Positions 1 to 17,202 of a stretch of 18,415 bases of DNA are shown here, piece by piece. The stretch lies in the sequence record CP014066.2; one strand, written 5' to 3'. The notes under the pieces were generated by a model. That model ran no database searches. It was not told the DNA's origin and was given only the letters and a program-made list of their open reading frames with translations. Source of the stretch: a plasmid. Numbering within the stretch: position 1 is the first letter of the stretch; each line of letters starts with the position of its first letter. The translations under genes and the position numbers were made by a program.

Positions 1-981
1 AAGCGGTGAGCGCACTCCGGCACCGCCAACTTTCAGCACATGCGTGTAAATCATCGTCGTAGAGACGTCGGAATGGCCGAGCAGATCCTGCACGGTTCGA
101 ATGTCGTAACCGCTGCGGAGCAAGGCCGTCGCGAACGAGTGGCGGAGGGTGTGCGGTGTGGCGGGCTTCGTGATGCCTGCTTGTTCTACGGCACGTTTGA
201 AGGCGCGCTGAAAGGTCTGGTCATACATGTGATGGCGACGCACGACACCGCTCCGTGGATCGGTCGAATGCGTGTGCTGCGCAAAAACCCAGAACCACGG
301 CCAGGAATGCCCGGCGCGCGGATACTTCCGCTCAAGGGCGTCGGGAAGCGCAACGCCGCTGCGGCCCTCGGCCTGGTCCTTCAGCCACCATGCCCGTGCA
401 CGCGACAGCTGCTCGCGCAGGCTGGGTGCCAAGCTCTCGGGTAACATCAAGGCCCGATCCTTGGAGCCCTTGCCCTCCCGCACGATGATCGTGCCGTGAT
501 CGAAATCCAGATCCTTGACCCGCAGTTGCAAACCCTCACTGATCCGCATGCCCGTTCCATACAGAAGCTGGGCGAACAAACGATGCTCGCCTTCCAGAAA
601 ACCGAGGATGCGAACCACTTCATCCGGGGTCAGCACCACCGGCAAGCGCCGCGACGGCCGAGGTCTTCCGATCTCCTGAAGCCAGGGCAGATCCGTGCAC
701 AGCACCTTGCCGTAGAAGAACAGCAAGGCCGCCAATGCCTGACGATGCGTGGAGACCGAAACCTTGCGCTCGTTCGCCAGCCAGGACAGAAATGCCTCGA
801 CTTCGCTGCTGCCCAAGGTTGCCGGGTGACGCACACCGTGGAAACGGATGAAGGCACGAACCCAGTGGACATAAGCCTGTTCGGTTCGTAAACTGTAATG
901 CAAGTAGCGTATGCGCTCACGCAACTGGTCCAGAACCTTGACCGAACGCAGCGGTGGTAACGGCGCAGTGGCGGTTTTCAT
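1..981 (-). CDS. intI1: Class 1 integron integrase IntI1, first 327 codons (start codon at 981..979). The ORF runs off the window start and continues at 18415
   Basis: The reverse complement of 961..981 reads ATGAAAACCGCCACTGCGCCG (MKTATAP). The gene is adjacent to attI1 and contains Pc. The sequence matches the remembered 5'-CS. Confidence 0.93.
866..894 (+). promoter_or_regulatory. Cassette promoter Pc, weak PcW variant: -35 TGGACA (866..871), 17-bp spacer, -10 TAAACT (889..894), no TGN
   Basis: Hexamers read directly. Located inside intI1 and oriented toward attI1 and the cassette. Confidence 0.8.
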
Positions 982-984
982 GGC

Positions 985-1010
985 TTGTTATGACTGTTTT
1001 TTTGTACAGT
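985..1010. promoter_or_regulatory. P2 hexamers TTGTTA (985..990) and TACAGT (1005..1010) with a 14-bp spacer (inactive form, no GGG insertion). The LexA box CTGTTTTTTTGTACAG (994..1009) overlaps the intI1 promoter
   Basis: Direct reading. CTGT-N8-ACAG palindrome. Confidence 0.7.
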
Positions 1011-1054
1011 CTATGCCTCGGGCATCCAAGCAGCAAGCGCGTTACGCCGTGGGT

Positions 1055-1123
1055 CGATGTTTGATGTTATGGAGCAGCAACGATGTTACGCAGCAGGGCA
1101 GTCGCCCTAAAACAAAGTTAGGC
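1055..1123 (+). other. attI1: attI1 recombination site; core GTTAGGC at 1117..1123, crossover between 1117 and 1118
   Basis: Canonical attI1 sequence ...AGTCGCCCTAAAACAAAGTTAGGC immediately upstream of the first cassette. Confidence 0.75.
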
Positions 1124-1126
1124 CGC

Positions 1127-1660
1127 ATGGACACAACGCAGGTCACATTGATACACAAAATTCTAGCTGCGGCAGATGAGCGAAATCTGCCGCTCTGGAT
1201 CGGTGGGGGCTGGGCGATCGATGCACGGCTAGGGCGTGTAACACGCAAGCACGATGATATTGATCTGACGTTTCCCGGCGAGAGGCGCGGCGAGCTCGAG
1301 GCAATAGTTGAAATGCTCGGCGGGCGCGTCATGGAGGAGTTGGACTATGGATTCTTAGCGGAGATCGGGGATGAGTTACTTGACTGCGAACCTGCTTGGT
1401 GGGCAGACGAAGCGTATGAAATCGCGGAGGCTCCGCAGGGCTCGTGCCCAGAGGCGGCTGAGGGCGTCATCGCCGGGCGGCCAGTCCGTTGTAACAGCTG
1501 GGAGGCGATCATCTGGGATTACTTTTACTATGCCGATGAAGTACCACCAGTGGACTGGCCTACAAAGCACATAGAGTCCTACAGGCTCGCATGCACCTCA
1601 CTCGGGGCGGAAAAGGTTGAGGTCTTGCGTGCCGCTTTCAGGTCGCGATATGCGGCCTAA
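1127..1660 (+). CDS. aadB: Aminoglycoside 2''-O-nucleotidyltransferase ANT(2'')-Ia (gentamicin/tobramycin/kanamycin resistance), gene cassette
   Basis: 177-aa product MDTTQVTLIHKILAAADERNLPLWIGGGWAIDARLG... recognised as AadB. ATG 5 nt after attI1 core, followed by attC. Confidence 0.93.
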   Translation: MDTTQVTLIHKILAAADERNLPLWIGGGWAIDARLGRVTRKHDDIDLTFPGERRGELEAIVEMLGGRVMEELDYGFLAEIGDELLDCEPAWWADEAYEIAEAPQGSCPEAAEGVIAGRPVRCNSWEAIIWDYFYYADEVPPVDWPTKHIESYRLACTSLGAEKVEVLRAAFRSRYAA

Positions 1661-1714
1661 CAATTCGTCCAAGCCGACGCCGCTTCGCGGCGCGGCTTAA
1701 CTCAGGTGTTAGAT
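1655..1714 (+). other. attC: aadB attC (59-be), ~60 bp: inverse core GCCTAAC (1655..1661), core GTTAGAT (1708..1714)
   Basis: Imperfect inverted repeat bounded by RYYYAAC/GTTRRRY cores. The 3'-CS starts right after it. Confidence 0.75.
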
Positions 1715-1816
1715 GCACTAAGCACATAATTGCTCACAGCCAAACTATCAGGTCAAGTCTGCTTTTATTATTTTTAAGCGTGCATAATAAGCCCTACACA
1801 AATTGGGAGATATATC

Positions 1817-2164
1817 ATGAAAGGCTGGCTTTTTCTTGTTATCGCAATAGTTGGCGAAGTAATCGCAACATCCGCATTAAAATCTAGCGAGGGCTTTACT
1901 AAGCTTGCCCCTTCCGCCGTTGTCATAATCGGTTATGGCATCGCATTTTATTTTCTTTCTCTGGTTCTGAAATCCATCCCTGTCGGTGTTGCTTATGCAG
2001 TCTGGTCGGGACTCGGCGTCGTCATAATTACAGCCATTGCCTGGTTGCTTCATGGGCAAAAGCTTGATGCGTGGGGCTTTGTAGGTATGGGGCTCATAAT
2101 TGCTGCCTTTTTGCTCGCCCGATCCCCATCGTGGAAGTCGCTGCGGAGGCCGACGCCATGGTGA
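1817..2164 (+). CDS. qacEdelta1: Truncated small-multidrug-resistance (SMR) efflux protein QacEdelta1 (3'-CS)
   Basis: 115-aa product [27 protein letters not shown]... with the characteristic altered C-terminus. Overlaps the sul1 start. Confidence 0.93.
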
Positions 2165-2997
2165 CGGTGTTCGGCATTCTGAATCTCACCGAGGACTCCT
2201 TCTTCGATGAGAGCCGGCGGCTAGACCCCGCCGGCGCTGTCACCGCGGCGATCGAAATGCTGCGAGTCGGATCAGACGTCGTGGATGTCGGACCGGCCGC
2301 CAGCCATCCGGACGCGAGGCCTGTATCGCCGGCCGATGAGATCAGACGTATTGCGCCGCTCTTAGACGCCCTGTCCGATCAGATGCACCGTGTTTCAATC
2401 GACAGCTTCCAACCGGAAACCCAGCGCTATGCGCTCAAGCGCGGCGTGGGCTACCTGAACGATATCCAAGGATTTCCTGACCCTGCGCTCTATCCCGATA
2501 TTGCTGAGGCGGACTGCAGGCTGGTGGTTATGCACTCAGCGCAGCGGGATGGCATCGCCACCCGCACCGGTCACCTTCGACCCGAAGACGCGCTCGACGA
2601 GATTGTGCGGTTCTTCGAGGCGCGGGTTTCCGCCTTGCGACGGAGCGGGGTCGCTGCCGACCGGCTCATCCTCGATCCGGGGATGGGATTTTTCTTGAGC
2701 CCCGCACCGGAAACATCGCTGCACGTGCTGTCGAACCTTCAAAAGCTGAAGTCGGCGTTGGGGCTTCCGCTATTGGTCTCGGTGTCGCGGAAATCCTTCT
2801 TGGGCGCCACCGTTGGCCTTCCTGTAAAGGATCTGGGTCCAGCGAGCCTTGCGGCGGAACTTCACGCGATCGGCAATGGCGCTGACTACGTCCGCACCCA
2901 CGCGCCTGGAGATCTGCGAAGCGCAATCACCTTCTCGGAAACCCTCGCGAAATTTCGCAGTCGCGACGCCAGAGACCGAGGGTTAGATCATGCCTAG
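2158..2997 (+). CDS. sul1: Sulfonamide-resistant dihydropteroate synthase Sul1
   Basis: 279-aa product [28 protein letters not shown]... The ATG overlaps the qacEdelta1 end, as in the 3'-CS. Confidence 0.94.
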
Positions 2998-3124
2998 CAT
3001 TCACCTTCCGGCCGCCCGCTAGCGGACCCTGGTCAGGTTCCGCGAAGGTGGGCGCAGACATGCTGGGCTCGTCAGGATCAAACTGCACTATGAGGCGGCG
3101 GTTCATACCGCGCCAGGGGAGCGA

Positions 3125-3625
3125 ATGGACAGCGAGGAGCCTCCGAACGTTCGGGTCGCCTGCTCGGGTGATATCGACGAGGTTGTGCGGCTGATGCACG
3201 ACGCTGCGGCGTGGATGTCCGCCAAGGGAACGCCCGCCTGGGACGTCGCGCGGATCGACCGGACATTCGCGGAGACCTTCGTCCTGAGATCCGAGCTCCT
3301 AGTCGCGAGTTGCAGCGACGGCATCGTCGGCTGTTGCACCTTGTCGGCCGAGGATCCCGAGTTCTGGCCCGACGCCCTCAAGGGGGAGGCCGCATATCTG
3401 CACAAGCTCGCGGTGCGACGGACACATGCGGGCCGGGGTGTCAGCTCCGCGCTGATCGAGGCTTGCCGCCATGCCGCGCGAACGCAGGGGTGCGCCAAGC
3501 TGCGGCTCGACTGCCACCCGAACCTGCGTGGCCTATACGAGCGGCTCGGATTCACCCACGTCGACACTTTCAATCCCGGCTGGGATCCAACCTTCATCGC
3601 AGAACGCCTAGAACTCGAAATCTAA
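3125..3625 (+). CDS. orf5: orf5, GNAT-family N-acetyltransferase of the 3'-CS
   Basis: 166-aa product MDSEEPPNVRVACSGDIDEVVRLMHDAAAW... in the standard position downstream of sul1. Confidence 0.85.
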   Translation: MDSEEPPNVRVACSGDIDEVVRLMHDAAAWMSAKGTPAWDVARIDRTFAETFVLRSELLVASCSDGIVGCCTLSAEDPEFWPDALKGEAAYLHKLAVRRTHAGRGVSSALIEACRHAARTQGCAKLRLDCHPNLRGLYERLGFTHVDTFNPGWDPTFIAERLELEI

Positions 3626-3912
3626 CGTCCGTTCGGGCATCGAGGTCCATGTCGGGGTGGGACGGGCCCGTGGCTTCAAGATCACTTGCAGTCCGACCGC
3701 GATGTCTTGGTTGCGCGAGAGGTTGTCGATATCCTCCACTTCCATCATCAACCCTGGATAATGCCGCCGCCGTCATCGCCGCCGACGCCCGTGCCGGGCT
3801 TTTCGGGCCTGTCAGGCTTGCTCGGCCTTCAGCCTGCCTGGGCGAGATCTCCGGCGGACGGATTAACGGCGGAGCTTCGCCGCCTTTCGTGCGTGTGAAG
3901 GCCGAAGATAGG

Positions 3913-4791
3913 GCTCTGTTGCAAAAATCGTGAAGCTTGAGCATGCTTGGCGGAGATTGGACGGACGGAACGATGACGGATTTCAAGTGGCGCCATTTCC
4001 AGGGTGATGTGATCCTGTGGGCGGTGCGCTGGTATTGTCGCTATCCGATCAGCTATCGCGACCTTGAGGAAATGCTGGCGGAACGCGGCATTTCGGTCGA
4101 CCATACGACGATCTATCGCTGGGTCCAGTGCTACGCCCCGGAGATGGAGAAGCGGCTGCGCTGGTTCTGGCGGCGTGGCTTTGATCCGAGCTGGCGCCTG
4201 GATGAAACCTACGTCAAGGTGCGGGGCAAGTGGACCTACCTGTACCGGGCAGTCGACAAGCGGGGCGACACGATCGATTTCTACCTGTCGCCGACCCGCA
4301 GCGCCAAGGCAGCGAAGCGGTTCCTGGGCAAGGCCCTGCGAGGCCTGAAGCACTGGGAAAAGCCTGCCACGCTCAATACCGACAAAGCGCCGAGCTATGG
4401 TGCAGCGATCACCGAATTGAAGCGCGAAGGAAAGCTGGACCGGGAGACGGCCCACCGGCAGGTGAAGTATCTCAATAACGTGATCGAGGCCGATCACGGA
4501 AAGCTCAAGATACTGATCAAGCCGGTGCGCGGTTTCAAATCGATCCCCACGGCCTATGCCACGATCAAGGGATTCGAAGTCATGCGAGCCCTGCGCAAAG
4601 GACAGGCTCGCCCCTGGTGCCTGCAGCCCGGCATCAGGGGCGAGGTGCGCCTTGTGGAGAGAGCTTTTGGCATTGGGCCCTCGGCGCTGACGGAGGCCAT
4701 GGGCATGCTCAACCACCATTTCGCAGCAGCCGCCTGATCGGCGCAGAGCGACAGCCTACCTCTGACTGCCGCCAATCTTTGCAACAGAGCC
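3913..4791 (+). mobile_element. IS6100 (IS6 family), complete; 14-bp terminal IRs GGCTCTGTTGCAAA at 3913..3926 and 4778..4791 (inverted)
   Basis: Terminal inverted repeats read directly. A 254-aa IS6-type transposase ORF lies between them. ~880 bp overall. Confidence 0.92.
3973..4737 (+). CDS. tnpA: IS6100 transposase
   Basis: 254-aa product MTDFKWRHFQGDVILWAVRWYCRYPISYRDLEEMLAERGISVDHTTIYRW... (IS6/IS26-family DDE transposase). Confidence 0.93.
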   Translation: MTDFKWRHFQGDVILWAVRWYCRYPISYRDLEEMLAERGISVDHTTIYRWVQCYAPEMEKRLRWFWRRGFDPSWRLDETYVKVRGKWTYLYRAVDKRGDTIDFYLSPTRSAKAAKRFLGKALRGLKHWEKPATLNTDKAPSYGAAITELKREGKLDRETAHRQVKYLNNVIEADHGKLKILIKPVRGFKSIPTAYATIKGFEVMRALRKGQARPWCLQPGIRGEVRLVERAFGIGPSALTEAMGMLNHHFAAAA

Positions 4792-4918
4792 TCCGTCGCC
4801 ATGCTCACCTCGCTTTGGTGCACACGAGTATTGAGCATAGTCGAGATTGGTGCAGATCACTTCTGATATTGAACTGTCAGGAGCTGGCTGCACAACAGCC
4901 ATTACGCCCAATCAACTG

Positions 4919-4943
4919 GTGCAGTCGTCTTCTGAAAATGACA
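4919..4943 (-). repeat. IRt, 25-bp terminal inverted repeat of the Tn402/class 1 integron backbone (TGTCATTTTCAGAAGACGACTGCAC on the minus strand)
   Basis: Exact 25-mer. It follows the short tni-end remnant after IS6100, as in In4-type integrons. Confidence 0.9.
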
Positions 4944-5027
4944 TATGCGCCTAGCTCAAAACACCAGCCTTAAAGAGCCTTTTCAAGACAGTTTCAGCGC
5001 GATGGACTCGGGGGCAGGGAAGGGCTA

Positions 5028-6607: not shown

Positions 6608-6841
6608 CTACGCGGTGAGTGACTGCCGCACCGCGTCCAGGGCCTGGCGGAAGTCGTCCCGCGTGGCTTGGCCCGTCTCGGCCTGGTAGTACAGCACCAT
6701 GAACATATTGGCGACGGCTTCCGCCATCGGCGAGAGCTGCCGCGCCGCCTCTTGGTCGATCCAGTCCAGGGCCGCGAGCTGTGCGGCCGCATGATGGACT
6801 GCCTGGGTTGCGATTGCATTGGTAGGATTCAAAGTTGCCAT
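6608..6841 (-). CDS. Hypothetical protein, 77 aa
   Basis: ATG start with RBS GAGGTG at good spacing. Protein-like composition. Directly followed by the terminator. Confidence 0.5.
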   Translation of the reverse strand: MATLNPTNAIATQAVHHAAAQLAALDWIDQEAARQLSPMAEAVANMFMVLYYQAETGQATRDDFRQALDAVRQSLTA

Positions 6842-6904
6842 GATTCACCTCTGTGGTAGGTGGGTTGTGGAAGTGTCGGCCGGCCCCACGCCGGCCGGCG
6901 CGCT

Positions 6905-7162
6905 TTACCGCTGGCCGCTGCTGTAGATGCCGGCGGCCTCGGCCAGCGGCGTGTTCCTGTTGCTGCCGCTGTAGCTGTTGCTCGATGACCTGGCCGCTGG
7001 CCTGGTGGCCTCGATGGCAGACGGGACAGGGCGATCAACGAAGGCCGCCACTTCCGCCGCTGCATCAAGCTCGGTTGATTGGTCGCCAGGCTGCTCAAAC
7101 TCCACCGCCTGACGCTGCACCTGGTCGAGCGCCAGGCAGTCGAAAAATCCACTACGTTTCAT
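6905..7162 (-). CDS. Hypothetical protein, 85 aa (ATG at 7162; the ORF track shows an upstream GTG)
   Basis: RBS GGAGG 7 nt upstream. The start lies 2 nt after the trbL stop. Confidence 0.45.
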   Translation of the reverse strand: MKRSGFFDCLALDQVQRQAVEFEQPGDQSTELDAAAEVAAFVDRPVPSAIEATRPAARSSSNSYSGSNRNTPLAEAAGIYSSGQR

Positions 7163-9107: not shown

Positions 9108-9893
9108 TCAGCGGGTCAGTTCGAGCCAGTTTCTCGGGCTTGCCGTGCGCTCGATCCTGGATTCCCTGGAAGTCGCGCCGGCGGCCTGCTGCTGCGCTTC
9201 AAGGTCGGCCTGCGCCTGCATCCTGGCGGTAGCGGCGTTCTGCTGCGCGATCAGCAAGCCACGGATTTGCAGGAGCTGGTTCGCCTGGTTGGCGGCGAGC
9301 TGGTTGGCGAAGCCGATAGCCTGCATCTGGCCGGTCGCGCCTTGTGCGGCCGACTGGAGCCGTTCGAGCTGGCGAGCGTCGGCGGTAAGGTTGCGCTGCT
9401 GCTGCTCCAGACCCTTGAAAAGCGCGTCGTTCGCCTTCTTCTGGCTCTCGCTCGACAGGCGGCGGTTTTGCTCCATCGCGGCGCGCTCGGCATCCGAGCA
9501 CCCGGCGGCCGAGAAGCACGGCGAGCTGCGGTAGTAGCTCACATCCTGGAATTTGCCCAGGTAGGCATCGAGACTGCCGAGCTGGTTCCTGTAGTAGTCC
9601 AGCGTGTTGACGGCATTCATCAGCCCGTTGATCGTGGACTGCGCCTGATCCCAGATGTAGGCCGCCGGGGCCATCGTGTTTTGCAGCATGTTCTCGTACT
9701 GCTGCAATTGGGTCTGGTACTGCTCGATCTGCTTGAGCGTCTGCGCCACCGACTCGATGGCCGTCATGACGTTCTGCACCAGGTTCCCGCCGTCGATGAC
9801 GGGGATGCCGGCCTGCGCTGGGGTGATGATGATGCTGCCGGCCAGGACGGCGGCGAGCGCGGTTTTAGCCGCTAAAAGGCGGACGTGCTTCAT
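9108..9893 (-). CDS. trbJ: TrbJ (VirB5-like) conjugal transfer protein, 261 aa
   Basis: Product MKHVRLLAAK...AQAGIPVIDGGNLVQNVMTAIESVAQTLKQIEQYQTQLQQYENMLQNT... closely parallels RP4 TrbJ from memory. Confidence 0.85.
   Translation of the reverse strand: MKHVRLLAAKTALAAVLAGSIIITPAQAGIPVIDGGNLVQNVMTAIESVAQTLKQIEQYQTQLQQYENMLQNTMAPAAYIWDQAQSTINGLMNAVNTLDYYRNQLGSLDAYLGKFQDVSYYRSSPCFSAAGCSDAERAAMEQNRRLSSESQKKANDALFKGLEQQQRNLTADARQLERLQSAAQGATGQMQAIGFANQLAANQANQLLQIRGLLIAQQNAATARMQAQADLEAQQQAAGATSRESRIERTASPRNWLELTR
9864..9876. promoter_or_regulatory. KorB-operator-type palindrome TTTAGCCGCTAAA (OB-like site 1), inside the 5' end of trbJ
   Basis: Exact match to the RK2 OB consensus TTTAGC(G/C)GCTAAA. 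One of four copies. Confidence 0.7.
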
Positions 9894-12335: not shown

Positions 12336-12427
12336 CTTGGCGTCCTCTGTCGTTGCCGGCGGCCGCCGGCTGGCCCCGCAGGGCAGGATGCCCCGTTGAG
12401 CGCCGCAGGCGCGAATAAGGGGAAGTG

Positions 12428-12480
12428 AAGAGGATCACCATGCTTGCATGGTGGGCCTACTTCACACATCCTGCCCTCTA
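12428..12480 (+). other. oriT: oriT: TraJ-binding inverted repeat CACCATGC-TT-GCATGGTG (12428..12445) and nick region GGGCCTACTTCACACATCCTG|CCC (predicted nic between 12473 and 12474)
   Basis: Near-identical to the RP4 oriT nick region (GGGCCTACTTCACCTATCCTGCCC) from memory. Lies between divergent traJ and traK. Confidence 0.75.
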
Positions 12481-12690: not shown

Positions 12691-13119
12691 ATGAAGCCGA
12701 TGGGAACCCGATACACCGATGAACTTGCCGCCTGGGCCGATCAGAAGGCCGAGAAGAAGCGCCGCCAGGACGCGGCGGCAGTAGCGTTTCTGGCGGTGCG
12801 CGGGGATGTGGTCGAGGCAATGGAAGCCGGCTACGCGCTGACGACGATCTACGATCACATGCACGAAACCGGCCGGGTGAAAACCAGCTATGAGACGTTC
12901 CGCCGGCACGTCCAGCGGTTCATCAAGGCAGCGCCGGCCGACACCGCGCCGCCGACACCGAAGGCCGCCACCAGGTCGGCCAGCAACTCGCCGACCACCG
13001 TTCCAGCCGTCACGCCAAAGCCGGCCGTACCAGCTCCGGCCAGCCCTGCCAGCGAGCAAGCCGGGAAGATTCCCAGCTTCAATTTCAACCCGACGCCGAA
13101 CAAAGAGGACTTGCTGTAA
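12691..13119 (+). CDS. traK: TraK oriT-binding relaxosome protein (alternative start at 12700), 142 aa
   Basis: Product ...YTDELAAWADQKAEKKRRQDAAAVAFLAVRGDVVEAMEAGYALTTIYDHMHETGRVKTSYETFRRHV... parallels RP4 TraK. Divergent from traJ across oriT. Confidence 0.8.
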   Translation: MKPMGTRYTDELAAWADQKAEKKRRQDAAAVAFLAVRGDVVEAMEAGYALTTIYDHMHETGRVKTSYETFRRHVQRFIKAAPADTAPPTPKAATRSASNSPTTVPAVTPKPAVPAPASPASEQAGKIPSFNFNPTPNKEDLL

Positions 13120-13180
13120 GCGCCCCAAGGGGCAAGTCGGACGCCAAGGGGAATATGCGTGCTGTTTGCCTTGCGTGCTT

Positions 13181-13193
13181 TTTAGCGGCTAAA
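13181..13193. promoter_or_regulatory. KorB-operator-type palindrome TTTAGCGGCTAAA (OB-like site 2), preceded by the TTGCGTGCTTTT motif shared with the two TATAAT promoters
   Basis: Exact 13-mer. Confidence 0.7.
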
Positions 13194-13197
13194 GCGT

Positions 13198-13247
13198 GCC
13201 CCTCAAGTGTCAATGTGCTGCCTGGGCTTTATTGACACTTGAGGGGC
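13198..13247. repeat. Perfect 17-bp inverted repeat GCCCCTCAAGTGTCAAT-N16-ATTGACACTTGAGGGGC. Each arm contains the RK2 oriV iteron sequence TGACACTTGAGGGGC
   Basis: Arms at 13198..13214 and 13231..13247 are exact reverse complements. Located between the convergent traK and kfrA 3' ends. Confidence 0.8.
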
Positions 13248-13253
13248 GGTCGA

Positions 13254-14159
13254 TCACTCGCCGCCGGGCTTTTTCCTGGTCGGCTTCGCCTCGGCCGCCG
13301 GCGGCGTGATGCGAGCCAGCAGCGCGGCCGATTGTTCCTTGAGCGTGTCGAGCTGCCCGGCCAGGCGGGCGGCTTCCTCGCGGGCCTGTGCGGCCGCCTT
13401 CGTGGCCTGGTCGCGCTCGGCCTGGGCGGCGGTGAGGCGTTCGGCCATGCGATGTGCCTCGCCCGCTGTGGCCTTGCGCTGTTCCTGGTGAGCTTCCTCG
13501 CTGGCCTCGGCCTTGGCCTGTACCTTCACCAGCTCGGCGCGCACCTGGTCGAGTTGAGCGGCGGCCGCCTGGCTGGCCTTCTGCTGTTCAGCCAGTGCCC
13601 CGCGTGCCTGGTCGGCGTCCTGGTGCGCCCTGTCCAGTTCCGTGCGCAGCTCGCCGGCCCGGCGCTCGATCTCTTGGGCGCGGGCCTCTGCCGTGTGCGC
13701 CTGTTCCTGGGCGGTAGCCAGTTGGCCGCGCAGCTCGTCGGCTTCGCCGCGTGCGGCCGCTTCGGCGGCCTCGATGGACGCCAGGCGGGATTGCAGGGCT
13801 TCCACGTCGCCGGCCAGTTTGTCGGCCAGCTCGGTTGCCTCGTTGCGGTCGGCTTCCAGCTCGGCGCGGGCCTTCTCCAGCCCTTCCCGCTCAACGGCAA
13901 GGCGGGCGTTCGCCAGGTCGAGGGCGATTGTCCATAGGTCGCTGCCCAGTTCGGCCAGGCGGTCGGCGACGGCCTGGGGCGCAGGCTCGCGCAGGGGCGC
14001 GGCGGCGGTGGCCTGGCGGGCCTTCCACTCGTTCAGGGCCGGGGAAATGGTTGTGTAGCTCCCGCCGGTGATCTGCCGGATTGCCTCAAGCGTGGGCTTC
14101 TGGCCGGCGGCGGCCAAGTCGTCGGCGGCGGAAAAAATCTGCTCTTTCGTGACTGCCAT
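13254..14159 (-). CDS. kfrA: KfrA: N-terminal DNA-binding domain plus long Ala/Glu/Gln-rich coiled-coil, 301 aa
   Basis: N-terminus MAVTKEQIFSAADDLAAAGQKPTLEAIRQITGGSYTTISPALNEWKARQ parallels IncP-1 KfrA. Alanine-rich heptad-like tail. RBS AGGAG. Confidence 0.85.
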   Translation of the reverse strand: MAVTKEQIFSAADDLAAAGQKPTLEAIRQITGGSYTTISPALNEWKARQATAAAPLREPAPQAVADRLAELGSDLWTIALDLANARLAVEREGLEKARAELEADRNEATELADKLAGDVEALQSRLASIEAAEAAARGEADELRGQLATAQEQAHTAEARAQEIERRAGELRTELDRAHQDADQARGALAEQQKASQAAAAQLDQVRAELVKVQAKAEASEEAHQEQRKATAGEAHRMAERLTAAQAERDQATKAAAQAREEAARLAGQLDTLKEQSAALLARITPPAAEAKPTRKKPGGE

Positions 14160-14189
14160 AGCGGTTGCTCCTGTATGAAATGTAGTGTT

Positions 14190-14230
14190 GTAGTATGTTG
14201 TATGATACTACTACATACTACGATTTACAA
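14190..14230 (-). promoter_or_regulatory. kfrA promoter/operator. Inverted repeat GTAGTATG-N16-CATACTAC with internal GTTGTA/TACTAC direct repeats overlaps a putative -10 TATCAT (reverse complement of 14202..14207) and -35 TTGTAA (reverse complement of 14225..14230), 17-bp spacing
   Basis: Palindrome and hexamers read directly. KfrA is known to autoregulate through a palindromic operator. Confidence 0.55.
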
Positions 14231-14839
14231 GCCCTACAGGAAAATACTACGCCGCTACCCTGGGGCCAGCCCGGCCGCGAGCGCGTGACGGTCGAAATTC
14301 GGCCCTGGAAGGCCCGTAGAGGCGTTTTTAGGGGGTCGGCGGCCCTACCCCCTGGCCTCGGCCGGTTTCGCGCCTCCTGGGCGCTCCTGGGTGGCCTGGC
14401 CGTGGTGCGCTTGGGCCTGCATCGTTGGATGTGGCGATGCTGGCCAGCTCGCCCGCCCTTTTTCTTGGCGTTCAACCTGCGGCCTTCCAGCTCGCGCCGG
14501 CGGTCGAGATTGGGCACGACCTCGGCAAACCGCTTTTCCTGCTAAACCTGCTTTTCTTGGGCTGTCGAGTTGCCGCGGTGCTCGATGAGTGTGCAGGCGG
14601 TGGAGCTGTCACCGGCGCGGCTTGCCGCGCTCTTGGTAAGCCAGTCCTGGCCGTTAGGCCAGGCACGATTGCCGGAGGGGGAGCCGGCGAAGCCGGGGGA
14701 ACCCCGCAGGGGTGCCCCGCCGAAGGCGCAGGCCGGCGCCGTAGGCGACGGGGCGGAGGGCCGAAGGCCCGGAGGGTAGGCGCGCCCGTAGGGCGTTGCG
14801 GCGGTTCGGTTTGCGCTGTCGGTTGAGTTTTCCACCGAT

Positions 14840-15147
14840 TTGGCCTGCCTATTACCAGCAATAAATTTATAGGAAAGACATTAAAGGCAAACCTTACAGG
14901 TTTAGGGGGGGGGCGATTTCACGAACCAGGGGGGGGGCGATTTCACGTGGATAAGCCACCCAAGGGGGGGGCGATTTCACGAACCAGGGGGGGGCGATTT
15001 CACGTGGATAAGTGCGGCTATCCACAGGGTTTGTCCCCAGTTCAGGGCCTGGCCGAGGGGTGTGTGCCTGGTCAGCCCTGAAACGACGCGGCCGCCTCGA
15101 TCTCGGGGCGGCCGGTGCGGTGCTGTAAGGGGGGGGGCGATTTCACG
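14840..15147. repeat. oriV: oriV candidate. AT-rich tract 14840..14895, then five direct iterons G(8-9)CGATTTCACG at 14896..14913, 14919..14937, 14954..14971, 14977..14994 and 15129..15147. DnaA-box-like sequences lie at 14936..14945 and 15003..15012 (CGTGGATAAG, i.e. TTATCCACG on the minus strand) and 15019..15026 (TATCCACA)
   Basis: Repeats read directly, spaced ~23 bp apart in pairs. Adjacent to the 3' end of the rep gene. Confidence 0.75.
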
Positions 15148-15149
15148 AA

Positions 15150-15161
15150 GTTTAGCTAAAC
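15150..15161. promoter_or_regulatory. KorA-operator-type 12-bp palindrome GTTTAGCTAAAC (OA-like), overlapping the rep stop codon and abutting iteron 5
   Basis: Exact match to the RK2 OA consensus. Single copy in the window. Confidence 0.6.
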
Positions 15162-16166
15162 CGTGGGGCCGCCCTTGTAGGGGATGGGCGGTGGCGAGCC
15201 GATCAGCAGCACGCCGCCGGTGACAGGCTTCACCCTCGCTTGCGGATAGACGGCCAGCACCTTCTTGAGCGCCGGCAAAAACTCCTTCTTGAAGTCCTTG
15301 TCGGGGTCTTTGCCTCGGTACTCCTGGGCGAACTGCTCGCGCAGCGCCTTCCAGTGCAACGTCACACCTCGGCCTTCGATGCGGTGCAGTCGGTGGGCCA
15401 GCCACGCATACACGTCCAGGGCCAGCGCGGAACCTTTCAGGGCGTGCAGAGCGCGATTGTCCAGCGGCACGGCGCTTTCGATCAGGGAGCCGTAGTAGTC
15501 CTCTGACAGCACCATGACGCCGGGCCATAGGGCGCGCTGCTGCGTGTCCTTGTTCGACACCCAGGCGTCGAATTGCTGCACCGGCTGGCCGTTGTAGGTG
15601 CGCCCCTTGAACCCGAGTTGCAGGCGAGCGGCGGCAAGGGCGTGCATCTGCTTCCGTAGCGTCGTGTAGCGGCGGCCGTCGCTCTCCATCCCCATCAGCC
15701 GCAGGAACTCGGCGGCACTGTCGCCGATGGGAATCTCCCGCTCCTTGTTGCGCACGGCGAAGGTGGAAACCCACGCCAGACCAAGCCGGGGCATGACGCC
15801 ATAGGGGATAGGTTGCAGCACCGGCCCCTTCCCTTCGTCCAGATAGCCGGCCTGGACATTGACCCAGGCCGCGCCGGACTGTCGCATGAACTCACGGCCT
15901 TCGACCTTGGCGCGAGGCAAACCGACCTGGCACAGCACCGCATGAGTGAAAGCCATGTCCTCGCCGGCCGGCGGGGTGGTGGCAATCTCCGCGCTGGCCT
16001 CGATCAGCTTCTGGTCGGCCCCGGTCAAGATGAGGCCGGCCGGCGTGATCTTCTTGGTTTGGCGCTTCGGCGGCGGCAATGCTGCCTTGGCCTGCGCCTG
16101 GGCCACCAGGTCGCCCATGATCTCGCCGATCTGCTGCGCGCCCTGCCCTTCTCGCTTCTTGGTCAT
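15156..16166 (-). CDS. trfA: Plasmid replication initiator, TrfA-family (probable), 336 aa
   Basis: Balanced, protein-like composition in contrast to the overlapping junk ORFs. Adjacent to the iterons. RBS GGAGGG. Recognised as TrfA-like from memory, not from a computed alignment. Confidence 0.65.
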   Translation of the reverse strand: MTKKREGQGAQQIGEIMGDLVAQAQAKAALPPPKRQTKKITPAGLILTGADQKLIEASAEIATTPPAGEDMAFTHAVLCQVGLPRAKVEGREFMRQSGAAWVNVQAGYLDEGKGPVLQPIPYGVMPRLGLAWVSTFAVRNKEREIPIGDSAAEFLRLMGMESDGRRYTTLRKQMHALAAARLQLGFKGRTYNGQPVQQFDAWVSNKDTQQRALWPGVMVLSEDYYGSLIESAVPLDNRALHALKGSALALDVYAWLAHRLHRIEGRGVTLHWKALREQFAQEYRGKDPDKDFKKEFLPALKKVLAVYPQARVKPVTGGVLLIGSPPPIPYKGGPTV

Positions 16167-16180
16167 GCTGGTGGCCCTCC

Positions 16181-16193
16181 TTTAGCGGCTAAA
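16181..16193. promoter_or_regulatory. KorB-operator-type palindrome TTTAGCGGCTAAA (OB-like site 3), 2 bp upstream of the rep RBS in the 29-bp parG-rep intergenic gap
   Basis: Exact 13-mer. Confidence 0.7.
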
Positions 16194-17189: not shown

Positions 17190-17202
17190 TTTAGCCGCTA
17201 AA
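17190..17202. promoter_or_regulatory. KorB-operator-type palindrome TTTAGCCGCTAAA (OB-like site 4), overlapping the resolvase stop codon and upstream of the parA promoter
   Basis: Exact 13-mer. Confidence 0.7.

Follow-up and report, generated by a model that had tools for sequence, protein, structure and literature searches.

The 18,415-nucleotide stretch of plasmid DNA analysed here (sequence record CP014066.2; hereafter the window) carries, between the convergent genes traK and kfrA, a perfect inverted pair of 17-nt sequences identical to the iterons that are bound by TrfA, the initiator of IncP-1 plasmids. The window is a small mobilizable resistance plasmid of the pMRCP1333/pMATVIM-7 type and an IncP-1-type hijacker, which would depend on a helper plasmid for its transfer. 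In the textbook view, iterons serve the origin and the copy control of the very plasmid on which their initiator is encoded. We put at about even the chance that the pair represents orphan TrfA sites, which would let the hijacker interact with its IncP-1 helper either by titration and handcuffing or by sensing. The iteron sequence itself is already known; what appears to be new is its orphan context, seemingly aimed at the initiator of another plasmid.

Results

The left arm (GCCCCTCAAGTGTCAAT) and the right arm (ATTGACACTTGAGGGGC) are 17 nt long each, 100% complementary and 16 nt apart (coordinates of all features are given in Table 1). A first-pass annotation, made from the letters of this DNA, had described perfect 17-bp arms with a 16-bp spacer, and the arms are indeed exact reverse complements. 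The core TGACACTTGAGGGGC occurs in the window at these two places only, even when three mismatches are allowed. With spacers of up to 100 nt, the 17-nt arm is also the longest perfect inverted repeat in the window; in 30 first-order Markov surrogates the longest arms measured 10–14 nt. The stop codon of traK (13117–13119) lies 78 nt ahead of the left arm, close to the ~80 bp given before, and that of kfrA (13254–13256) follows the right arm after 6 nt rather than 5 bp. A distance of 1.66 kb separates the pair from the resident origin and the rep gene, in agreement with the annotation, which had placed it away from both. The neighbouring site described as 'OB-like' is present as well, and the description was too cautious: it is a perfect KorB operator (OB), 4 nt from the left arm.

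The annotation had recognized in the arms an iteron sequence of the RK2 oriV, and three comparisons confirmed this. The oligonucleotide of the RK2 oriV used for TrfA binding includes GGTATTGACACTTGAGGGGCGCG (PMC3273809), the iterons of IncP-1beta plasmids are quoted as TGACACTTGAGGGGC (PMC3614916), and the oriV of the IncP-1β backbone plasmid pBP136 has exact copies of the arm sequence. Both arms fit the 17-bp TrfA iteron motif (A/T)TGACA(C/G)(T/A)TGAGGGGC, and the variant GCCCCTCAAATGTCAAT found in relatives is a natural RK2 iteron, too. The right arm together with its flank (20 nt, ATTGACACTTGAGGGGCGGT) is identical to 'iteron 10' of pBP136. Orphan copies and genuine oriV iterons also have similar flank preferences (Y at −2, R at +16 and S at +17); in this comparison of information content the core is biased by the way the loci were collected, and the flank positions alone are usable. 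IncP-1 TrfA is the sole known ligand of the arm sequence, and sequence identity suggests that TrfA would bind both arms.

The pair is not built like an origin. Iteron arrays consist of direct repeats at 22–23 bp accompanied by DnaA boxes and by AT-rich and GC-rich regions, whereas the window has two inverted copies with a 16-nt spacer. Nor is a cognate trfA present on the same replicon: Pfam assigned the resident Rep to RepA_C, and tblastn with TrfA of pBP136 gave a best E-value of 0.83. We considered the resident Rep as a TrfA and rejected this candidate, as Pfam, NCBIfam and BLASTP returned RepA_C, RPA and HTH types; the sole trace of TrfA likeness was a weak 43-aa match between the window Rep and TrfA (E 1e-3). 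No TrfA, KorA, KorB, TrbA or KorC was found in the window (best tblastn E-values 0.04–0.8), and in the five carriers checked (the window, pMATVIM-7, pNOR-2000, the HTH-Rep plasmid L011 and the GIsul2 region) none of TrfA, KorA and KorB is encoded. The annotated carriers combine IncP-type transfer parts and IncP-1 operators and are without a mating-pair system. The pair places two perfect TrfA-type sites outside the active origin, and at least two sites so placed characterize an iteron-type incompatibility or handcuffing determinant.

We compared the arrangement of the 17-mer among related plasmids. The comparison indicates that the 17-mer, rather than the hairpin, is the conserved unit, with replaceable spacers and flanks and with arms that are inverted, direct or single. 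The first-pass annotation, made from one sequence, had not recognized that the element is a module found throughout the family and distributed widely. Spacers between the arms range from 15 to ~120 nt in relatives and mostly hold a GC hairpin and a T-run terminator. A group of MOBQ plasmids with the pair (pNOR-2000, pGES-GZ, pLM16A1, pbAMD1 and others), whose Rep is RepA_C or RPA, has different left neighbours (traG and an open reading frame, ORF). Their order is OB, 2–8 nt, iteron, a spacer of ~85 nt with GC hairpin and T-run, the inverted iteron and the kfrA stop codon. One relative (L005) has a 16-nt spacer as in the window; it matches both ends of the long spacer and looks like the long form with the terminator part deleted. 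The arrangement in pMATVIM-7, which has a third Rep type, is exactly that of the window. In pAMBL1 the right arm is gone and a single copy is left, and in L008 OB and the left iteron alone are found and kfrA is replaced. Taken together, carriers of the pair span three unrelated Rep types (RepA_C, RPA and HTH), two relaxase types and chromosomal elements of the GIsul2 and PIME-like kinds.

A different intergenic region was found in HTH-Rep plasmids of Pseudomonas, Achromobacter, Acidovorax and Xanthomonas, which have the same traK and a similar 3' half of kfrA. This region has no OB and contains two direct copies of the iteron, each followed after 11–19 nt by CGTGAAATCGCCCCCCCC. The latter is the iteron of a RepA_C replicon, which the HTH-Rep plasmids lack, and the first CGTGAAATCGCCCCCCCC motif together with ~40 nt is homologous to the oriV of the window (score 47, compared with a shuffle maximum of 28). 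Foreign RepA_C iterons beside TrfA iterons point to a general use of foreign iterons and suggest that interaction with the initiators of other replicons may be the common theme. Direct units of TrfA-type and RepA_C-type iterons are seen in L011 (5253–5413) and also in L007, L009, L015 and L016, and neither initiator is encoded there. According to a published paper, no iterons are present near repA in the HTH-Rep (pMATVIM-7) family. We considered the pair as the missing origin of this family and rejected it: the pair also occurs with other Reps, and 23-bp repeats (GTAATACGGACGGACTT...) are located at the 3' end of rep in HTH-Rep plasmids.

An exact-match scan of species-representative genomes (a 596-Gb collection) yielded at least 119 loci, compared with ~70 exact 17-mer matches expected by chance (our own estimate), so that lone chromosomal matches are uninformative. 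The structured matches fall into IncP-1 origins (8–10 iterons including the known inverted one), kfrA-linked pairs, chromosomal pairs and a composite of OB, 7 nt and iteron. A metagenome-assembled contig (L029) has a segment with traK, iteron pair and kfrA that is identical to that of the window. At ~35 chromosomal loci in many genera we found the same divergent pair with a 48-nt spacer; this class is GIsul2. The order in GIsul2 is guaA, int, alpA, IncQ-like repA and repC with their own 22-bp iterons, a palindrome resembling a KfrA operator, the iteron pair, an IncP-type oriT (~250 bp from the pair), an RHH gene, OB with trbJKL, and the ptaRNA1 toxin. It is colinear with the window (oriT, traK, pair, kfrA with its operator, oriV, rep), and the two have a post-traK motif in common, a GCCCC..GGGGC hairpin plus GGACGCCAA.

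Within GIsul2, a stretch of ~1 kb (L026, 2230–3210; likewise L138, the GIsul2 of E. coli 6409) holds oriT, the divergent pair, IncQ-like RepC iterons and a KfrA-operator palindrome of the RK2 type; a gene for the RepB primase (repB) was not seen near this stretch. The pair sits there inside an outer repeat (GTTGGACGCC/GGCGTCCAAC), and there is no kfrA gene. Another E. coli island (L139, 9000–10000) has oriT, a single perfect iteron, a KfrA operator of the IncP-1beta type (GTAGTAT/CTACAAC) and its own iterons, again with no kfrA. Islands of this kind appear to reuse several sites for helper proteins, as their sequences suggest. In a PIME-like element (L063, 3329–3365), OB, 7 nt, an iteron and a small hairpin lie between convergent alpA and int.

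OB beside an iteron recurs in relatives and PIME-like elements at distances of 2–9 nt, 7 nt being the commonest. The composite with 7 nt is also present at L039, L059, L137, L019, L033 and L103, and the same spacing is the commonest in MOBQ plasmids. Convergent (head-to-head) pairs with spacers of 9–14 nt, a third geometry of the same two sites, were seen at L070 (1246–1284), L071 (3131–3201) and L125 (1882–1947), two of them beside OB. Four perfect OB sites and one perfect KorA operator (OA) are present in the window, which lacks korA and korB, at promoter-like or gene-boundary positions.

Two further kinds of iteron occurrence were noted in the scan. In some IncP-1beta plasmids, a further perfect iteron lies ~1.4 kb past iteron 10 (L044, 2451–2465; also L078, L098, L106, L122 and L130). 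It is located directly upstream of the ORF after klcA (probably klcB), with GAGGGGC 6 nt before the ATG resembling a ribosome-binding site. Arrays of six to eight perfect RK2-type iterons were found at L051 (6782–7024, Fluviicoccus) and L101 (105–341). No IncP-1-like TrfA was detected in the stored flanks of these arrays, which may belong to unrecognised TrfA-type replicons.

Outside its integron cassettes, the window is almost identical to pMRCP1333 (16.6 kb, Pseudomonas paralcaligenes), and its backbone is common to pMATVIM-7 and about a dozen clinical plasmids. It contains an IncP-type oriT and the relaxosome genes traJ, traI and traK; a mating-pair formation system is lacking, and the only trb genes are trbJ, trbK and trbL. 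The resident origin spans 14880–15160 and includes DnaA-box-like TTATCCAC sites and an AT-rich stretch (14860–14900). Rfam has no family at the site of the pair. It does identify the PtaRNA1 antitoxin RNA at 6835–6905 (plus strand), beside a toxin gene of the ptaRNA1 family downstream of trbL, and the block of trbL, small ORF and toxin is also found in GIsul2 and pMATVIM-7. Between the kfrA promoter and oriV lies a GC-rich region of ~660 bp (14220–14880) with an annotated ORF of 97–99 aa that has no Pfam or NCBIfam match. Positions 1–5000 comprise a class 1 integron region (Rfam AAC_AAD leader/attI at 1071–1142), the cassettes of which are the only large difference between the window and pMRCP1333.

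Table 1. The inverted pair and surrounding features, in positions of the window
Feature	Positions	Strand	Remarks
OB, perfect	9864..9876		trbJ 5' end; same place in pBP136
IncP-type oriT	12372..12476	-	19-bp inverted repeat, nick region CACATCCTGCCC (nick motif ATCCTG), Rfam traJ-II match
traK (DUF5338)	12691..13119	+	47% identical to pBP136 TraK; left neighbour of the pair, convergent with kfrA
Post-traK signature, hairpin GCCCCAAGGGGC + GGACGCCAA	13122..13147	+	also ahead of the left iteron in GIsul2-type islands, L020 and HTH-Rep plasmids
Terminator-like hairpin (13141-13176), then GCUUUUU	13141..13183	+	RNA fold; upstream of OB and the pair
OB, perfect, TTTAGCGGCTAAA	13181..13193		4 nt from left arm
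Left arm, IncP-1 TrfA-type iteron	13198..13214	-	minus-strand reading ATTGACACTTGAGGGGC; same as RK2 and pBP136 iterons; kept in relatives
Spacer GTGCTGCCTGGGCTTT	13215..13230		16 nt; unconserved among relatives
Right arm, IncP-1 TrfA-type iteron ATTGACACTTGAGGGGC	13231..13247	+	17 nt
kfrA (KfrA_N domain)	13254..14159	-	50% identical to pBP136 KfrA
kfrA promoter TTGTAA-17-TATCAT	14180..14230	-	GTAGTAT/CTACAAC repeats resemble the IncP-1beta KfrA operator, unlike the iteron
Own oriV iterons, 5 x GGGGGGGGCGATTTCACG	14906..15155	+	with DnaA-box-like sites and an AT-rich stretch (14860-14900)
OA, perfect, GTTTAGCTAAAC	15150..15161		overlaps rep stop codon; oriV edge
rep (RepA_C, PF04796)	15156..16166	-	no TrfA-family match
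OB, perfect	16181..16193		immediately upstream of rep
OB, perfect	17190..17202		upstream of parA

Discussion

Extra iterons outside a working origin bind the initiator and can couple origins. The first-pass annotation had offered three readings of the pair, namely a hairpin terminator for traK and kfrA, a vestige of an ancestral IncP-1 oriV and a binding site for the TrfA of a co-resident IncP-1 plasmid, and our sequence comparison favours the last. In the presence of a helper, TrfA monomers would occupy both arms. The bound pair would then couple to the helper origin or compete with it, titration of TrfA and handcuffing with the helper oriV being the most likely consequence, and the outcome would be a copy-number or incompatibility effect directed at IncP-1. 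Alternatively or in addition, the TrfA complex together with KorB at the adjacent OB could signal the presence of a helper to the hijacker. In the window plasmid, kfrA mRNA may in addition end at the RNA hairpin or be stabilised by it, as a by-product. What the comparison shows is the identity of the sequences, the lack of a TrfA on the plasmid, the conservation of the 17-mers whatever the geometry of the hairpin and the link with IncP-1-dependent elements; the occupancy of the arms by TrfA in vivo, and its effect, are what we infer. In the work of Perri (1991, 1993), as cited in PMC4980987, TrfA strongly prefers DNA that has two or more iterons to DNA with a single one, and it is reported to bind stably only where there are at least two, which fits the prevalence of pairs.

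Several points weigh against docking of helper TrfA. The number of exact matches in the genome collection has to be set against the chance background given above. Both pAMBL1 and L008 have lost one arm, and the pair is therefore dispensable for maintenance. Among GIsul2 variants, 1 of 34 arm columns varies as compared with 48 of 191 elsewhere (Fisher p=0.003), which speaks for docking, but such conservation statistics come from few related sequences. The second arm of GIsul2 reads TGATAC, with the change at a position that is invariant (C) in the sampled oriV iterons. It also seems costly for a hijacker to destabilise the helper that it needs. The pair is unmentioned in the literature searched; an earlier mention in the papers on p07-406/pMATVIM-7 and Rms149 is possible. 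Finally, the binder may be a protein other than TrfA, from the host or from the element.

The last point belongs to the alternative that the pair is bound by a protein encoded on the element or by its host, for example KfrA, the partition RHH protein or some factor yet to be annotated, and matches the TrfA iteron by coincidence. We judge this unlikely, though it deserves to be taken seriously: in plasmids the pair always abuts kfrA, palindromes resembling KfrA operators lie beside iterons in GIsul2, L088 and L139, and the adjacent OB has no known resident binder either. The kfrA operators, however, are of the GTAGTAT type (window and pBP136) or of the AAGAATAAT type (pNOR-2000, L011 and RK2), and both are unlike the iteron. 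GIsul2-type islands and L139 have the iteron without kfrA, which makes binding by KfrA unlikely. The carriers have no protein that is present in every one of them, and single genomic occurrences are at about the chance level by our own estimate, so that a host regulon is not indicated.

The first of the earlier readings, which we now regard as improbable, was a hairpin acting in both directions to end or stabilise the transcripts of the convergent genes traK and kfrA, its iteron likeness being incidental. The site between convergent genes, 6 nt after the kfrA stop codon, would suit such a role. Both strands can form a 17-bp RNA stem; the fragments folded had minimum free energies of −83.2 and −56.6 kcal/mol (z = −3.5 and −6.3), and kfrA has no other obvious terminator in the window plasmid. 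However, the stem is followed by a U-tract on neither strand, the loop measures 16 nt and a terminator scan made no call. Upstream of the pair, traK has a hairpin with U5 of its own (13141–13183), which is likely to be the traK terminator; the strict scan (loop limit 3–8 nt) made no call there, either. Some relatives have a separate canonical terminator between the arms, in others the arms are direct repeats, which are unable to pair, and in others there is a single arm, and it follows that a terminator is not what is conserved. Right-arm variants (TTAAGGGGC) break the pairing in plus-strand RNA, and the sequence is kept while the geometry changes. If the role were structural, the 17 nt would not be held to the exact TrfA iteron in contexts that are unrelated to each other.

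The second earlier reading, a neutral vestige of an ancestral IncP-1-like oriV left after replacement of the replicon, fared worse and is in our view very unlikely. Much of the backbone is related to IncP-1 (TraK 47% and KfrA 50% identical to those of pBP136; oriT, trbJKL, OB and OA), IncP-1 origins hold one inverted iteron, and identities of 20–21 nt take in the flanks of iterons 10 and 1 of pBP136. Beyond the motif, however, no likeness to the IncP-1 oriV was found, and the orientation is opposite: the pair in the window is divergent, whereas iterons 10 and 1 of pBP136 converge over 490 bp. For the same reasons, opposite orientation and missing flanking homology, we rejected the pair as a deletion derivative of these two iterons. 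Three Rep types, two relaxase types and chromosomal islands are represented among the carriers; their spacers and flanks cannot be aligned, but the 17-mers stay perfect. Arms that stay intact while their flanks diverge across architectures argue against a neutral fossil.

Much the same low probability applies to a hairpin that would form when the leading region (oriT, traK, pair) is transferred as a single strand and would serve as a signal for priming or early expression in the recipient. The distance of the pair from the IncP-type nick site is 0.7 kb, towards traK, the pair is close to oriT in GIsul2, too, and the outer repeat in GIsul2 lengthens the palindrome. Yet direct-repeat and single-copy versions cannot fold in this manner, oriT and the pair are 3.5 kb apart in MOBQ plasmids, and the identity of the stem with the TrfA iteron would be left unexplained.

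The minimal RK2 oriV needs five direct iterons together with DnaA boxes, AT-rich 13-mers and a GC-rich block. A second, TrfA-dependent origin working with the TrfA of the helper is thus hardly credible: two perfect iterons are present and TrfA acts on oriV in trans, but the two are inverted and no DnaA boxes, AT-rich 13-mers or GC-rich block are nearby. We also rejected a promoter, for the arms hold a perfect −35 hexamer (TTGACA) with no matching −10 box 16–18 nt away on either strand in the window, and resemblances to IHF sites, DnaA boxes, dif/Xer sites and res sites, none of which fitted when checked by eye.

The docking of helper TrfA at the pair could be part of something wider. We propose, tentatively and with more doubt than confidence, that hijackers share a 'helper code' of cis sites for helper proteins, by which they would detect the arrival of an IncP-1 plasmid, switch their own programme and/or throttle the helper. 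This code would comprise TrfA iterons (single or in inverted or direct pairs), KorB operators (often 7 nt from the iteron), KorA operators and, in islands without kfrA, KfrA operators, and its carriers would be the pMATVIM-7 and pNOR-2000 families, GIsul2 and other PIME-like islands. The programme switched would be that of the excision, replication and transfer genes, and the pair and OB of the window would be the plasmid version of the sensor. The RepA_C iterons in HTH-Rep plasmids would extend the principle to other co-resident replicons.

According to a preprint of January 2026, the IncP plasmids pB10 and pKJK5 specifically bring about the excision, replication and mobilisation of PIMEs, a family that includes GIsul2 and has traK/J/I and trbJKL modules; mobilisation by a helper was shown there for PIME1 elements (bioRxiv 10.64898/2026.01.12.698999). 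The same preprint calls the sensing of the helper by PIMEs unknown and does not mention TrfA iterons or KorB operators (bioRxiv 10.64898/2026.01.12.698999). As a candidate for the means by which GIsul2/PIME-type islands perceive the arrival of an IncP plasmid, the pair is concrete and can be mutated. More generally, perfect IncP-1 iterons appear to be kept under selection on elements that lack the initiator and need IncP-1 plasmids for transfer. If TrfA binds, the pair would be a natural cross-element control point, and effects of a resistance plasmid and its helper on each other, in incompatibility or copy number, could be due to it. The carriers are of clinical importance and spread sul2 and the carbapenemase genes VIM, IMP and GES among Pseudomonas, Achromobacter, Enterobacterales and Acinetobacter.

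Comparison with known systems

The closest counterparts of the pair are the 17-bp iterons of the IncP-1 oriV (RK2/RP4, R751 and pBP136), which are bound by TrfA monomers. They have the same 17-nt sequence and similar flank preferences. In contrast to them, the pair in the window is outside the origin, consists of two copies rather than 8–10 and is inverted and divergent rather than direct at 22–23 bp. It has neither DnaA boxes nor an unwinding element, there is no trfA on the replicon, and a KorB operator adjoins it. The inverted 'iteron 10' of the IncP-1 oriV is likewise a lone iteron opposed to the rest, with a 20-nt identity to the right arm that includes the flank. In pBP136, however, iteron 10 converges with a cluster of five iterons over 490 bp of AT-rich and GC-rich origin DNA, in a plasmid that encodes TrfA.

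Rep operators made of inverted half-iterons (pPS10, F, R6K and pSC101) are also inverted repeats derived from an iteron sequence. These operators are built from the iteron of the plasmid itself and lie over the promoter of its rep gene, whereas the window has full-length foreign iterons. The pair lies 1.9 kb from the 5' end of rep, at the convergent 3' ends of traK and kfrA, and the resident iteron is GGGGGGGGCGATTTCACG; an autoregulatory operator of Rep is not what we see here.

GIsul2 and other PIME elements (bioRxiv 10.64898/2026.01.12.698999) share with the window the IncP-type oriT, trbJKL, the ptaRNA1 toxin and OB sites, and the same divergent pair is found in GIsul2, where oriT lies on one side of it and the element's own origin on the other. 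They differ from the window in being chromosomally integrated and in having int and alpA as well as IncQ-like repA/repC.

In its proposed mode of action, the pair would resemble cloned RK2 oriV iterons that inhibit RK2, incA of P1 and incC of F. Those determinants act on the plasmid's own initiator and serve control of its own copy number, whereas the pair in the window would target the initiator of the helper plasmid.

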